This document shows positions 2,126 to 8,064 of a stretch of 64,000 nucleotides of DNA, in pieces; within the stretch, counting starts at the first letter, position 1, and each line of letters starts with the position of its first letter. This stretch comes from Escherichia coli (lineage in GTDB: Bacteria; Pseudomonadota; Gammaproteobacteria; Enterobacterales; Enterobacteriaceae), in assembly GCF_024298765.1 (NCBI RefSeq), contig NZ_CP101210.1. The stretch is one strand, 5' to 3'. The position numbers were made by a program, and so were the translations under genes. Below the pieces are notes generated by a model. The model was not told where the DNA came from. It saw only the letters and a program-made list of their open reading frames with translations, and did not search any database.

Positions 2126-4063
2126 TCAGTAACGACGTCCCCATTCCGTGGCGCTCATCAACGTCGGTTTATCCCCCATGAAATAGCGGTAGTAAGCGTC
2201 ATAAGCCAGCACGTTCTTCACATAACCGCGCGTCTCGGAGAACGGAATACTCTCGACAAATGCCACAGCGTCGATACGCCCGGCGCTGTTGCCAAGCCAG
2301 GTTCGCACCCGTCCAGGTCCGGCGTTATAAGCTGCTGAGGAGAAAATACGGTTATTGCCAAACTGCTGATAAACATATTGCAGGTAACTGGTGCCAATGT
2401 TGATGTTCGTTTCCGGATCCAGCAATTGCCCAGGGCTGCTATAACCAGGAATAGAGAACATCTTCACCGTATGGGTCGCCGTGCCCGGCATAATCTGCAT
2501 CAGGCCGCTGGCCCCTACCGGTGATTTCACTTTCGGATTCCAGGCGCTCTCCTGACGGGCAATCGCCATCGCATAGCTTTGCGGGATCTCCTTCCCACTG
2601 GTGTAACGTTTGAAAAGATCGTTGTAGGCCAGCGGGAACCTCTCTTCCAGATGATCCCAAAGCTTCCCGGCGATCGTTGCCTGAACGCTAAGATCCCACC
2701 ATTGGTTATTGAAAGCATACCGAGCCAGTTGCGCCTGCTCTGTTTTTGACTTGCTCTTCACCAGATTGGCCCACTCGCTACGCGCGGTATTATCGAGATT
2801 CCAGTACATCAACTCGCGCACGCGCGCCATCTCCGGCCCCTGAGTCAGGGCGCTGTCAACATTCTGCGGCGCTTTATCAATCTTCAGCTCATACTCTTCA
2901 CCGATGCGTTGTGCTGCAACCATCGGGTAGAAACCACGCTGTTGCATGAGTTGATGCAAAATCTCTTTTGCTTCAGCTTCACGTCCGCGTTCCAGCAGTA
3001 AATCCGCCTGCCAGTAACGCCATTCATCTTTCTCTTTCGCCTCCATCGGCAAACGCGCCAGCCAGGTATTCAGGCCGCGACGATCGCCGGTGCCAAGCGC
3101 CATTCGCACGCGCCGTTCAATAAGCGAAGTAGATTGCGAACGCATAATGGCGTCATCGCGCCATTTCGCCTGCTCATCGGTGACATCATTGCCCATCAAA
3201 CGCCAGGCGACGATATCGCGCAGCTCCTGAATCTGATCTTCATTAAGCTGCTGCGCCTGGGCAAGCGACGGGATCATCAGCCGTGCATTTTCAGCATCCT
3301 GCCGCGCCACACTGGCAAACGCCACCGCCGCCATTTGACGGGTAAAATCGGTCGCTCCGGTTGTACGCGCGAAGGTCAGTACCGTATTAGGGTTGTTCGC
3401 CAGTGAAATGATTGCCGAGGCGATAGTCTGGTAATCGGCAGGCATCTGCCCTGCCAGCACTGTTACGAGTCCAGTGTTACCCGCTTTCATCGCCAGACGG
3501 ATACGCTCTAAATACGCCAGCGGATCTTGTTTACCTGACGCACGCCAGACGCTAAATAACTTGTCACAGGCGTTAGGCTGGCTCTTGCCGGTTAGCCACA
3601 GCTCTTTCGCCCCTTGCCAGGCTTCTTCACTCTGCCCGGTGTTCCATTTCGCATAGTAGTAATTACATTGCGCTTCGGTAGTTCCGGGCTTTTCCGGACT
3701 AAAGGCTAACAAGCCACGCCAGTCTTCACGCCGCGCCAGTTCATTGACGAAACGAGATTGCAGCGTGCGAGCGGGAGGAAGCGTGGGGTTAGCGCGAACA
3801 AAGTTAGTCACCGTCACCGCCGGTTGATTCATCAGGTCATCGGTGATCTGGCGGTATTCCAGGTAGGGATAAAGCGGATAATCCTTCAGTCCAGGCATCA
3901 TTTGTTCGACCACATCCATTTGTCGATTATCCCAGGCCTGCTTGATTTGGGCGTAGCGGCTACGCTGCTCATCCAGTGAGTCGGCTCGCGCCACGCTGCT
4001 GACCGTCAGCAGACAGACACCGGCAGCCAACAGCCGCCAGGTAACTTGTTTGGCTTTTTCCAC
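2126..4063 (-). CDS. slt: soluble lytic murein transglycosylase
   Basis: ORF to 4093; start set at GTG giving 645 aa (MEKAKQVTWRLL) with GAGGAT Shine-Dalgarno. Confidence 0.9.
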   Translation of the reverse strand: MEKAKQVTWRLLAAGVCLLTVSSVARADSLDEQRSRYAQIKQAWDNRQMDVVEQMMPGLKDYPLYPYLEYRQITDDLMNQPAVTVTNFVRANPTLPPARTLQSRFVNELARREDWRGLLAFSPEKPGTTEAQCNYYYAKWNTGQSEEAWQGAKELWLTGKSQPNACDKLFSVWRASGKQDPLAYLERIRLAMKAGNTGLVTVLAGQMPADYQTIASAIISLANNPNTVLTFARTTGATDFTRQMAAVAFASVARQDAENARLMIPSLAQAQQLNEDQIQELRDIVAWRLMGNDVTDEQAKWRDDAIMRSQSTSLIERRVRMALGTGDRRGLNTWLARLPMEAKEKDEWRYWQADLLLERGREAEAKEILHQLMQQRGFYPMVAAQRIGEEYELKIDKAPQNVDSALTQGPEMARVRELMYWNLDNTARSEWANLVKSKSKTEQAQLARYAFNNQWWDLSVQATIAGKLWDHLEERFPLAYNDLFKRYTSGKEIPQSYAMAIARQESAWNPKVKSPVGASGLMQIMPGTATHTVKMFSIPGYSSPGQLLDPETNINIGTSYLQYVYQQFGNNRIFSSAAYNAGPGRVRTWLGNSAGRIDAVAFVESIPFSETRGYVKNVLAYDAYYRYFMGDKPTLMSATEWGRRY

Positions 4064-4194
4064 AAGCGCATCCTCTAAGTGTAAATACATCAATGCAGCG
4101 TCATGCCGCGTAATAGATTTATGCTAACCAGTCATTGCCGTTTACGCCACGTTACGGACACTTTTTTACTTTTATACTCTAAATAATTCGAGTT

Positions 4195-4398: not shown

Positions 4399-6066
4399 GT
4401 GGCTCAATTCGTTTATACCATGCATCGTGTCGGCAAAGTTGTTCCGCCGAAACGTCATATTTTGAAAAACATCTCTCTGAGTTTCTTCCCTGGGGCAAAA
4501 ATTGGTGTCCTGGGTCTGAACGGCGCGGGTAAGTCCACCCTGCTGCGCATTATGGCGGGCATTGATAAAGACATCGAAGGCGAAGCGCGTCCGCAACCGG
4601 ATATCAAGATTGGTTATCTGCCGCAGGAACCGCAGCTGAACCCGGAACACACCGTGCGTGAGTCCATTGAAGAAGCGGTTTCTGAAGTGGTTAACGCCCT
4701 GAAACGCCTAGATGAAGTGTATGCGCTGTACGCCGATCCGGATGCCGATTTTGACAAGCTGGCCGCTGAACAAGGCCGTCTGGAAGAGATCATTCAGGCT
4801 CACGACGGTCACAACCTGAACGTTCAGCTGGAGCGTGCGGCGGATGCGCTGCGTCTGCCGGACTGGGACGCGAAAATCGCTAACCTCTCCGGTGGTGAGC
4901 GTCGTCGCGTGGCGTTGTGCCGCCTGCTGCTGGAAAAACCAGACATGCTGCTGCTCGACGAACCGACGAACCACCTGGATGCCGAATCCGTGGCGTGGCT
5001 GGAACGCTTCCTGCACGACTTCGAAGGCACCGTTGTGGCGATTACCCACGACCGTTACTTCCTCGATAACGTGGCGGGCTGGATCCTCGAACTGGACCGT
5101 GGTGAAGGTATTCCGTGGGAAGGTAACTACTCCTCCTGGCTGGAGCAGAAAGATCAACGTCTGGCGCAGGAAGCTTCACAAGAAGCTGCGCGTCGTAAGT
5201 CGATTGAGAAAGAGCTGGAGTGGGTACGTCAGGGGACTAAAGGCCGTCAGTCGAAAGGTAAAGCACGTCTGGCGCGTTTTGAAGAGCTGAACAGCACCGA
5301 ATATCAGAAACGTAACGAAACCAACGAACTGTTTATTCCACCGGGACCGCGTCTTGGCGATAAAGTGCTGGAAGTCAACAACCTGCGTAAATCCTATGGC
5401 GATCGTCTGCTGATTGATGACCTGAGCTTCTCGATCCCGAAAGGAGCGATCGTCGGGATCATCGGTCCGAACGGTGCGGGTAAATCGACCCTGTTCCGTA
5501 TGATCTCCGGTCAGGAACAGCCGGACAGCGGCACCATCACTTTAGGTGAAACGGTGAAACTGGCATCGGTTGATCAGTTCCGTGACTCAATGGATAACAG
5601 CAAAACCGTTTGGGAAGAAGTTTCCGGCGGGCTGGATATCATGAAGATCGGCAACACCGAGATGCCAAGCCGTGCCTACGTTGGCCGCTTTAACTTTAAA
5701 GGGGTTGATCAGGGTAAACGCGTTGGTGAACTCTCCGGCGGTGAGCGCGGTCGTCTGCATCTGGCGAAGCTGCTGCAAGTTGGCGGCAACATGCTGCTGC
5801 TCGACGAACCGACCAACGACCTGGATATCGAAACCCTGCGTGCGCTGGAAAACGCCCTGCTGGAGTTCCCGGGCTGCGCGATGGTTATCTCGCACGACCG
5901 TTGGTTCCTCGACCGTATCGCCACGCACATCCTGGACTACCAGGATGAAGGTAAAGTTGAGTTCTTCGAAGGTAACTTTACCGAGTACGAAGAGTACAAG
6001 AAACGCACGCTGGGCGCAGACGCGCTGGAGCCGAAGCGTATCAAGTACAAGCGTATTGCGAAGTAA
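4399..6066 (+). CDS. ettA: energy-dependent translational throttle ABC-F ATPase EttA
   Basis: 555 aa; two ABC cassettes (GLNGAGKST, GPNGAGKST; LSGGERRR, LSGGERGR). Confidence 0.95.
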   Translation: MAQFVYTMHRVGKVVPPKRHILKNISLSFFPGAKIGVLGLNGAGKSTLLRIMAGIDKDIEGEARPQPDIKIGYLPQEPQLNPEHTVRESIEEAVSEVVNALKRLDEVYALYADPDADFDKLAAEQGRLEEIIQAHDGHNLNVQLERAADALRLPDWDAKIANLSGGERRRVALCRLLLEKPDMLLLDEPTNHLDAESVAWLERFLHDFEGTVVAITHDRYFLDNVAGWILELDRGEGIPWEGNYSSWLEQKDQRLAQEASQEAARRKSIEKELEWVRQGTKGRQSKGKARLARFEELNSTEYQKRNETNELFIPPGPRLGDKVLEVNNLRKSYGDRLLIDDLSFSIPKGAIVGIIGPNGAGKSTLFRMISGQEQPDSGTITLGETVKLASVDQFRDSMDNSKTVWEEVSGGLDIMKIGNTEMPSRAYVGRFNFKGVDQGKRVGELSGGERGRLHLAKLLQVGGNMLLLDEPTNDLDIETLRALENALLEFPGCAMVISHDRWFLDRIATHILDYQDEGKVEFFEGNFTEYEEYKKRTLGADALEPKRIKYKRIAK

Positions 6067-6076
6067 TGCGTAAAAT

Positions 6077-6108
6077 GCCGGATGCGGCGCGCCAGCATCG
6101 CATCCGGT
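6077..6108. terminator. REP-like hairpin between convergent ettA and antitoxin gene
   Basis: gccggatgcg...cgcatccggt inverted repeat. Confidence 0.5.
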
Positions 6109-6121
6109 ATTAGTTAAATGA

Positions 6122-6406
6122 TTAATGGGAGGCAAGTTCCCGGAAAAAGGCAGGATTTTCTTTAATTGTGGCAAGTACTTTTGCAGCCAATCCCGTAGGA
6201 TTTCTTCGCTTCGATTCCCAGCTTTTAATGGTATCCACACTGGTTCCCAGAGCTTTTGCCATCTCACTTTGCGAAACGTTGAGTTGCTCACGAATAGCTT
6301 TAACATCCGCAATTTCGTAGCGGGTCACCCGTGCAGGTTCTTTTAAACCTTGTTTAATCTCGACAGCCTCTTCCAGAGAGGTTTTCAACTCATCAAAAAA
6401 ACTCAT
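6122..6406 (-). CDS. HTH (XRE-like) antitoxin, HigA-like
   Basis: 94 aa with HTH (LNVSQSEMAKALGTSVDTIKSWE); ATG lies 1 nt after the toxin TAA. Confidence 0.7.
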   Translation of the reverse strand: MSFFDELKTSLEEAVEIKQGLKEPARVTRYEIADVKAIREQLNVSQSEMAKALGTSVDTIKSWESKRRNPTGLAAKVLATIKENPAFFRELASH

Positions 6407-6407
6407 T

Positions 6408-6740
6408 TTATATCTCGCCTTTGAGCAGTTTCGTCAACTTCTTTAGTTGAGCTTTTTCCGTATCTGTCAGACTATCTTTGGCATTTTTCGGATAGGCCAT
6501 AATCAAATAAATAATCTCTTCCGTCGCCAGAAAGTAAATTATTCTGACACTGCCACTTTTTCCCTGTGAACCCGCAACCATTCGGACTTTACGCAATCCA
6601 CCAGTCTGCTGAATGAGATCACCTTTATCGGGAGTTCCGATGAGTTCTTTTTGCAATTCCTTTAATTCATCATCGGTTGCAATCTGCTTGATCTGACGCG
6701 TAAACATTGGCGTCTCTATAAATATTATCGCCTTACCCAT
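6408..6740 (-). CDS. RelE/ParE-superfamily toxin, HigB-like
   Basis: ORF to 6818; start set at ATG 6740 preceded by GGGAGGGG Shine-Dalgarno; 110 aa; toxin-first operon order. Confidence 0.65.
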   Translation of the reverse strand: MGKAIIFIETPMFTRQIKQIATDDELKELQKELIGTPDKGDLIQQTGGLRKVRMVAGSQGKSGSVRIIYFLATEEIIYLIMAYPKNAKDSLTDTEKAQLKKLTKLLKGEI

Positions 6741-6756
6741 TACCCCTCCCTGGCAG

Positions 6757-6767
6757 GTACATTGTAC
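6757..6767 (-). promoter_or_regulatory. palindromic putative operator (GTACA-A-TGTAC) overlapping a TACAAT -10-like hexamer upstream of the toxin gene
   Basis: read directly from sequence. Confidence 0.35.
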
Positions 6768-6831
6768 ACCAAAATGGAGTGCTAAGTACACTTTTGAATC
6801 AGTAATCCCACTCAACATCTTATAAAGATGA

Positions 6832-8064
6832 TTATCTTTGCTCCCCCATCATCTCCCGCACCAGCTCTACGCAGCGCAGGAAACGGCTGTCATAATCGTC
6901 TTCTTCAACCCGCACAAATTCGATATTGTTCTCTTCCAGCATCTCCACCAGCAAGTTCTGGAACTCTTTGCGATCCACCGAACTGCCGAGGCTGCGTAAA
7001 CCATCCGCCACCCAAGGGGTGTTGTTCTCCAGCAAGATAACCAGATCAAAACGGTATTCATCGATCAGCGCCTGCACGAACGGATGCTCCCGCCCTTCGT
7101 ACTTTTTGCAGAACGCCTGGGTAGTGACAAAATCAGTGTCGATAAACGCCACTTTATTGGCATATTTCACTGCAAAATCAATGTATTGTGCGTGTCCCAG
7201 CGCGATTTTATCGTAGTCGGAATACTGCAATGCGATCTCATCACCGCCGAGGTGTGAAAAGACATAATCGCGACCATATTCCCACGCACTGGTGGTATTG
7301 AAGATATTGGCAAGTTTGTTTACCAGGGTGGATTTACCGCTCGACTCGCCGCCAAGGATCGCCACGGTACGCACAAAAAACGGCTTCACTTCAGTGGGGA
7401 TATATTCCCAGTAGCGGAACGGGTTTTCGCGGATCTGCGCACCGCTGATACTCATAAAGGTGCGTTTCGGATCGACCAGCACCGTTTCGATCCCCAGATG
7501 TTCCATATACTGTGGCGCATCGGCTTCTTCCGAGGTGTAGATCAGGTCCGGCTGGATCCCCTTTTCAGCCATAAACTTTTTGATGCCGTTGCTCCACACA
7601 TCCCAGCCGTGCGGATACGGCTCCATGCCCTCTTCGTTGAAGGCATGAATACGGATATTTTTCTGATATTTAAAGGTTTGCAATAACCAGCGCAGACGAT
7701 CCGGCACGGTGGGCTGCTGCGACATGGCGCTGTCTTCAAACAACGCGCGGTCGCGGGTATCGTCAAAGCCCATAATGATATGCAGCTCGTCAACCTGGCT
7801 ACAGGCGCGCTGGATAAGGTAGATATGTCCGGTATGTAGCGGGTAGAACTTACCGAATACGACACCAATGGTTTTCTTTTGGCGGGGAAATTCAAGCCCC
7901 AAAAAACGGTGCAACGCCTCCAGCTTTTGCGCGCTGGGGCTTTTAATTTTGGCATTCAGTAACTGGCTTAAATACCCTTTGGTCATACCGCTGGCATCAG
8001 CTACCTGCTGTAGCGTGCAGCCCTGTTGCTTGATGGCAGTTTTCAGGTAATCAAATGACGACAT
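6832..8064 (-). CDS. nadR: NadR: NAD biosynthesis regulator / NMN adenylyltransferase / ribosylnicotinamide kinase
   Basis: start placed to give 410 aa (MSSFDYLKTAIKQQ); HTH, HTGH motif and GGESSGKST P-loop. Confidence 0.9.
   Translation of the reverse strand: MSSFDYLKTAIKQQGCTLQQVADASGMTKGYLSQLLNAKIKSPSAQKLEALHRFLGLEFPRQKKTIGVVFGKFYPLHTGHIYLIQRACSQVDELHIIMGFDDTRDRALFEDSAMSQQPTVPDRLRWLLQTFKYQKNIRIHAFNEEGMEPYPHGWDVWSNGIKKFMAEKGIQPDLIYTSEEADAPQYMEHLGIETVLVDPKRTFMSISGAQIRENPFRYWEYIPTEVKPFFVRTVAILGGESSGKSTLVNKLANIFNTTSAWEYGRDYVFSHLGGDEIALQYSDYDKIALGHAQYIDFAVKYANKVAFIDTDFVTTQAFCKKYEGREHPFVQALIDEYRFDLVILLENNTPWVADGLRSLGSSVDRKEFQNLLVEMLEENNIEFVRVEEDDYDSRFLRCVELVREMMGEQR

Follow-up and report, generated by a model that had tools for sequence, protein, structure and literature searches.

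A probable HigB2/HigA2-type toxin-antitoxin module between nadR and ettA of Escherichia coli and its decay within the species

HigB2/HigA2 of Vibrio cholerae (VcHigBA2; PDB entries 5JAA, 5JA8 and 8A0X) represents a family of toxin-antitoxin systems that is well characterised in this organism both structurally and biochemically. The toxin HigB2 is a ribosome-dependent mRNase. It was shown that replacement of R51, R64, Y82 or K84 of VcHigB2 by alanine lowers the activity 170- to 3000-fold, with Lys84 being the most critical residue, and that the N-terminal segment of HigA2 folds onto the toxin and is enough alone to neutralise it (PMC5416850). For HigA2, footprinting and a crystal structure showed that a dimer binds to the operator TGTACGC-N5-GCGTACA, which overlaps with the -10 element (PMC11006873). 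The HigB of Proteus is built without the C-terminal helix and the arrangement of its antitoxin dimer differs (PMC5416850). In E. coli, two genes in the spacer between nadR and ettA very probably constitute a type II toxin-antitoxin module that is located on the chromosome and belongs to the V. cholerae HigB2/HigA2 type. The module is of a known kind and is annotated already in RefSeq, in which the two proteins are named 'type II toxin-antitoxin system RelE/ParE family toxin' and 'nadS: NadS family protein', and as the family is well characterised in V. cholerae the pair has little weight as a discovery; a search of the accessible literature gave no experimental study of the two E. coli genes. 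The news is incremental and consists in the HigA2-type character of NadS, a GTAC-N3-GTAC box as probable operator, the origin of the stub annotated in K-12 and the substitution K85I in a third of the toxins. The locus is furthermore a tidy example of decay within a species, with deletion of the toxin, truncation of the antitoxin by REP sequence and exchange of the catalytic lysine.

The window, i.e., the whole stretch of 64,000 nucleotides that was analysed, contains the pair in the region 6122-6831, which is the entire spacer separating the convergent core genes nadR (minus strand) and ettA (plus strand) (Table 1). Both open reading frames lie on the minus strand, and the anatomy given in a preliminary description of this DNA was found as claimed, i.e., a toxin-first two-gene operon downstream of nadR, a Shine-Dalgarno sequence ahead of the toxin gene and a 94-aa XRE-type HTH protein that starts 1 nt past the toxin stop. 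The stop codon TAA of the toxin gene and the ATG of nadS are exactly this one nucleotide (6407) apart, and the spacer between nadR and the toxin gene has 91 bp (6741-6831). The strength of the homologues (E 1e-16 to 1e-54) argues against both reading frames being chance open reading frames. A longer toxin reading frame of 136 aa (ATG 6818) was considered and rejected: RefSeq annotates 333 nt, homologues align from residue 1-4 only, and the promoter and operator region together with a conserved upstream motif would become coding, and for the latter two reasons the 110-aa start is taken as the right one. Strain 104, a chicken isolate, is 100% identical across the region.

Table 1. Positions of the genes and of observed and predicted sequence elements in and around the nadR-ettA spacer of the window.
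Feature	Position	Strand	Basis or remark
ettA	stop at 6066	+	convergent neighbour
nadR	stop 6832-6834	-	upstream neighbour of toxin gene
Toxin gene, 110 aa	ATG 6740 to stop 6408 (6740..6408)	-	RefSeq WP_001317608.1; ORF list
Antitoxin gene nadS, 94 aa	6406..6122	-	RefSeq WP_000007436.1; ORF list
Shine-Dalgarno GGGAGGGG of toxin gene	6750..6743	-	direct sequence reading; 2 nt ahead of ATG
Box O2 GTACAATGTAC (GTAC-N3-GTAC), predicted NadS operator	6767..6757	-	contains -10-like TACAAT 6766..6761
Box O1 GTACTTAGCAC, degenerate second box	6789..6779	-	22 bp upstream of O2
TGTACT, left end of box O1, best -35 candidate	6785-6790	-	18-nt spacer to TACAAT
REP-like GC-rich hairpin, probable two-way terminator	6074..6111		between convergent nadS and ettA

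The RelE/ParE fold that had been proposed for the 110-aa protein is supported in agreement by Pfam, by searches of the PDB with sequence and fold, and by the RefSeq annotation. In Pfam the toxin matches RelE (PF06296) with an E-value of 3e-9, far stronger than the weak and partial match to Gp49 (PF05973; E 0.0015, 19 bits, residues 43-105). Searching all PDB chains with phmmer revealed that toxin residues 6-102 match V. cholerae HigB-2 (E 2.7e-16), and up to E = 1 only chance-level CRISPR ring nucleases were returned besides HigB-2. An AF2 model of the toxin, built on 27 homologues and with a mean pLDDT of 77.6, was compared to the PDB with Foldseek, and the best 11 matches are HigB2 chains (TM 0.68-0.80, probability 1.00). 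The ParE toxins follow after these chains with a TM of about 0.5, and together with the RefSeq name, which says only 'RelE/ParE family', this would be compatible with the toxin being a ParE-like gyrase poison instead of an mRNA endonuclease. However, the strong matches lead without exception to HigB2, which is an mRNase, the catalytic residues R/R/Y/K of RelE type are conserved and the partner antitoxin is of HigA2 type and not of ParD type, and a gyrase poison is therefore given hardly any credence. Residues R53, R66, Y83 and K85 of the toxin correspond to R51, R64, Y82 and K84 of VcHigB2 in the PDB alignment, all four are invariant in an alignment of the 27 homologues, and the window copy carries K85 (codon at 6486-6488). 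As every catalytic and invariant residue is kept and the antitoxin is intact, the toxin-antitoxin copy of the window is probably active, judged from its sequence. None of the NCBIfam families matched the toxin, and PADLOC-DB returned no defence system, with a chance-level CARF match for the toxin (E 0.008) and generic HTH matches for NadS only. In PHROGs both proteins match only the families phrog_5869 and phrog_2104, whose function is unknown, and the relatives in phage records are distant only, with at most 52% identity.

NadS matches the NCBIfam equivalog NF041265 (NadS) over profile positions 1-94 of 94 with 182.6 bits (E 1.2e-54), the curated cut-off being 60 bits, and it contains an HTH_3 domain at residues 35-79 (Pfam, 6e-10). 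With a profile of NadS built from 27 homologues, positions 3-92 align with residues 5-101 of HigA-2 (E 4e-11), and this alignment takes in the N-terminal segment (LFAELSSALVEA in NadS, FFDELKTSLEEA in HigA-2) that in HigA2 neutralises the toxin. By its sequence, NadS is thus a HigA2-type antitoxin. An assignment of NadS as MqsA was rejected, as NadS reaches 38 bits with TIGR03830, for which the cut-off is 61.8, and matches with the HTH part only (profile positions 67-126); NadS contains no cysteine.

Upstream of the toxin gene, the palindrome GTACA-A-TGTAC that overlaps a TACAAT hexamer, noticed already in the preliminary description, is present and constitutes box O2 (Table 1). In the window it is the single GTAC-N3-GTAC in 64 kb, which is about the chance expectation, and its significance lies in its conservation upstream of related toxin genes and not in this count. 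A scan of genome contigs gave 57 loci from other species with toxin relatives of 47-81% identity; the scan is no complete census and returned no Escherichia, yet E. fergusonii has the pair. Among the 53 of these loci with enough upstream sequence, 46 carry GTAC-N3-GTAC in the 100 nt that precede the toxin gene, in nearly all cases 29-64 nt ahead of the toxin start, compared to 5 occurrences in the remaining 369 kb of the related loci. Several loci, from Serratia, Enterobacter and others, have a second box about 21 bp farther upstream, and the same layout is found in the window. Box O1 reads GTACTTAGCAC in the window and GTACTTAGTAC in the other E. coli sampled and in E. fergusonii; a single T-to-C change, turning GTAC into GCAC, breaks one GTAC of this predicted second operator. 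The GTAC-N3-GTAC boxes are probably the operator of NadS. This is proposed because of their conservation and not by transfer from V. cholerae, as operator binding is not simply transferable by homology: of the base-contacting residues of VcHigA2, R68, E71 and N72 align with D58, K61 and S62 of NadS and only R77 is kept (R67), and the spacing of the half-sites differs as well.

The candidate promoter of the pair combines TACAAT, with 5/6 positions to consensus, and TGTACT, with 3/6, at a spacer of 18 nt, and this promoter ahead of the toxin was not picked up in a scan for consensus promoters. A promoter-like site within the toxin gene (6570..6541), considered as a promoter for nadS only, was dismissed because such sites occur at chance level (2 found and 1.4 expected). 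In Acinetobacter higBA2, which is more distant and of Gp49 type, a comparable internal promoter proved inactive when assayed (PMC5906591). A terminator-like hit on the plus strand (6624-6644) lies within the toxin gene and on the wrong strand and was discarded, too. The spacer between nadR and the toxin gene has no terminator, so that read-through from nadR is possible. On the other side of the pair, the hairpin at 6074-6111 has arms of 13 nt with 92% complementarity, an RNA fold of -20.9 kcal/mol (z -3.55) and UUUU next to it on the nadS strand, and its sequence is REP-like (GCCGGATGCG...CGCATCCGG); it probably terminates both nadS and ettA. No known RNA was detected with Rfam in the region 5900-7000 at E-values up to 1.

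From these elements a working scheme of the module can be proposed. Transcription would most likely start at the weak promoter TGTACT-18 nt-TACAAT within the nadR-toxin spacer, possibly supplemented by read-through from nadR, and the transcript would end at the shared hairpin. The toxin would act as a RelE-fold, ribosome-dependent mRNA endonuclease, and nadS would be translationally coupled to the toxin gene via the gap of 1 nt. The N-terminal approximately 30 residues of NadS are predicted to fold onto the toxin and to neutralise it, while the C-terminal XRE helix-turn-helix would bind DNA as a dimer. NadS, with or without the toxin, would then repress transcription via the two GTAC-N3-GTAC boxes lying over the -35 and -10 elements.

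Of the related loci, 56 continue beyond the toxin gene, and in every one of them a nadS homologue comes directly after it. Both genes are intact in 46 loci, and there they are for the most part separated by 1 nt or overlap by 4 nt. A nadR homologue was not detected near any of the 57 loci from other species, and the name 'Nad' thus reflects the neighbourhood in E. coli only. It was considered if NadS could be a regulator of NAD metabolism acting with NadR, the upstream reading frame encoding an accessory protein and not a toxin. Such a function is suggested by the position of nadS directly downstream of nadR, by strains with deleted toxin in which it starts 33 nt from the nadR stop and is probably co-transcribed, and by the K-12 stub being reported as expressed (PMC12350097). 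Against it stand that nadS adjoins a toxin gene wherever a related locus extends, that the closest solved relative of NadS is the antitoxin HigA-2, that the HTH domain was lost in most E. coli and that no paper tying nadS to NAD regulation was found in the literature searched. A NAD-regulatory role is hence highly improbable, and it was dropped as a candidate on account of the missing nadR homologue near the loci of the other species sampled.

In Klebsiella, Serratia, Shigella boydii, Hafnia, Pectobacterium, Citrobacter and Yersinia ruckeri, plasmids of 4-7 kb encode toxins of about 80% identity with adjacent antitoxins. One E. coli record of 4.9 Mb found among the plasmids (NZ_CP134663.1), with a toxin of 98% identity, is evidently a mislabelled chromosome. 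The GC content of the module is 0.42, compared to 0.55 for ettA and 0.51 for nadR, and this low GC content together with the plasmid relatives indicates a foreign origin of the module. It was probably inserted at this site before E. coli diversified and has since degenerated in the majority of lineages. A recent gain is contradicted by E. fergusonii, in which the pair occupies the same site: an exact-protein look-up revealed the intact pair in strain ATCC 35469 in the order radA-nadR-toxin-nadS-ettA-slt.

Within E. coli, 4962 of 5426 complete genomes contain some part of a 765-bp region spanning the pair. The toxin gene is present in 672 of the 5426 (12.4%), i.e., in about 1 in 8, and the HTH-encoding half of nadS in 729; an orphan nadS of full length is thus encoded in about 57 genomes, and roughly 4200 keep a remnant of about 140 bp only. 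The pair is not a conserved core feature characterised already in K-12. The same deletion junction, GATAA-CCG-TGAYGAAAC, was found in four toxin-less strains, namely 700462, which has the full orphan nadS, K-12, B19429 and Trp01, and as these four strains have it in common the toxin was deleted in a single event and the antitoxin truncated later. The preliminary description had suggested a strain-variable acquisition. The variability and the foreign character of the module hold, but the variation among strains reflects loss and not repeated acquisition, as is concluded from the remnant in most genomes, the shared junction and the intact pair of E. fergusonii at the same site. In strain B19429 (1-1650 of the extracted locus) a degenerate nadS remnant after nadR is followed by genes for DUF1471, SRPBCC and SDR proteins, and ettA is not next to the remnant, showing that the junction is rearranged in some strains. 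Strain Z1323HEC0355 carries an insertion encoding an integrase core domain (an IS element, 2789-3889 of the extracted locus) between nadR and the toxin gene, overlapping the annotated toxin start.

The toxin variants sampled are A55V, V65L, I110V and K85I. The K85I allele was detected by an exact 37-nt probe in 224 of the 672 toxin-bearing genomes, e.g., in LF82, M-17 and ECONIH2, while the K85 (AAA) allele of the window gave 281 hits. V55 was found in the window allele only, the other six of the seven alleles compared having A55. As the locus is decaying species-wide and a third of the toxins are K85I, selection for an active toxin is doubtful. This raises the question if the pair is an inert relic, with a toxin that is attenuated or barely expressed and with NadS being at most a self-repressor. 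Such a relic would fit to the decay across the species, with many more genomes holding a remnant than a toxin, to the frequent loss of the main catalytic lysine, to a broken toxin (truncated or interrupted) beside an intact nadS homologue in 6 of 52 related loci from other species, the toxin decaying before the antitoxin as in E. coli, and, for the window, to its mutated box O1, its strain-specific A55V and its weak promoter. The window allele nevertheless retains the four catalytic residues and those invariant in the 27 homologues, and V55 aligns at the start of the disordered loop of VcHigB2, a non-catalytic position. Moreover, the NadS protein does not differ in any of the five further toxin-carrying E. 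coli genomes that were sampled, and the changes in their nadS DNA are all synonymous, as would be expected if it still had to neutralise something. We therefore regard an inert relic as unlikely and retain the reading as a HigB2/HigA2-type module.

Compared to its flanks, the module shows far less divergence. From the window to E. fergusonii, the differences amount to 0/285 in nadS and 6/333 in the toxin gene, compared to 65/1233 in nadR and 57/1668 in ettA, and the module is less diverged than the flanks among E. coli strains, too. Possible explanations are a recombinational spread of the intact module or an unusual constraint. In a review, tables based on TADB list 'higBA/HTH' pairs in the AIEC strains LF82 and NRG857c, and these may include the nadR/ettA locus.

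The pair had been described beforehand as not known from K-12. Indeed, only a broken remnant exists there, but the site is not empty: in K-12 W3110 a 'nadS' of 55 aa is located between nadR and ettA (3944-4111 of the extracted locus). The toxin gene and the promoter region are deleted from just past the nadR stop, with the last approximately 33 bp of the toxin gene kept, and the stub consists of the first 37 nadS codons followed by REP-type sequence that replaces the HTH half. At the position of the hairpin 6074-6111, K-12 has a longer REP cluster, which substitutes the 3' half of nadS. Compared to the window DNA, the first 22 codons of the stub are identical and the next approximately 75 nt contain 8 changes. 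On this sequence evidence, the K-12 'nadS' is a neutralising stub of the NadS antitoxin and the product of a two-step decay. In a transposon-reporter study from 2025, the K-12 'nadS', which is annotated by PGAP only and absent from EcoCyc, was found to be expressed under laboratory conditions, and the study does not say what it is (PMC12350097). As nadS begins 33 nt past the nadR stop in the toxin-deleted strains, the orphan gene is probably co-transcribed with nadR there. The orphan forms, i.e., the full-length protein (about 57 genomes) and the stub of 55 aa (most E. coli), keep exactly the HigA2-type toxin-neutralising N-terminus, and orphan NadS might serve as an anti-addiction peptide directed at the closely related HigB2-type toxins of small enterobacterial plasmids. 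That these forms were kept for a purpose and are not debris is nonetheless thought to be rather improbable. A practical caveat follows for toxicity assays in K-12 hosts, as the host expresses a stub containing that segment of the cognate antitoxin which would neutralise the toxin.

In comparison with known systems, the pair resembles MqsR/MqsA in its toxin-first order and in a weak similarity of the NadS HTH region to the C-terminal domain of MqsA, but NadS is built without the CxxCG zinc-binding N-terminal domain and the toxin has no match to MqsR. With HigB-HigA of E. coli K-12 and Proteus Rts1 (ygjN-ygjM type) it has in common the toxin-first order, a toxin of the RelE superfamily and an HTH antitoxin, whereas no Proteus or E. 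coli HigB chain, but HigB-2 instead, is among the PDB matches up to E = 1. The NadS-family (NF041265) pairs on small enterobacterial plasmids likewise combine a RelE/ParE toxin with an adjacent antitoxin, and in contrast to these the copy in the window is chromosomal and fixed in position. The closest likeness is to V. cholerae HigB2/HigA2: the gene order is toxin-first, the toxin has the RelE fold with about 34-40% identity to VcHigB2 and all four catalytic residues, and NadS aligns over its full length with VcHigA2, with the neutralising segment at the N-terminus and the XRE HTH at the C-terminus. The predicted NadS operator has the TGTAC/GTACA half-site ends of the V. cholerae operator and overlaps the -10 element as well. 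The two systems differ in location, VcHigBA2 being part of a superintegron and the E. coli pair occupying a fixed core-genome site between nadR and ettA, and in the recognition helix, where NadS has changes at three of the four positions that contact bases. Finally, one 7-N5-7 inverted repeat in V. cholerae stands against two predicted GTAC-N3-GTAC boxes 22 bp apart in E. coli, with a gap between the half-sites of 9 nt (TGTAC to GTACA) there and of 3 nt here, and if the prediction is true, this two-box operator would constitute a distinct DNA-binding mode for a HigA2-type repressor.
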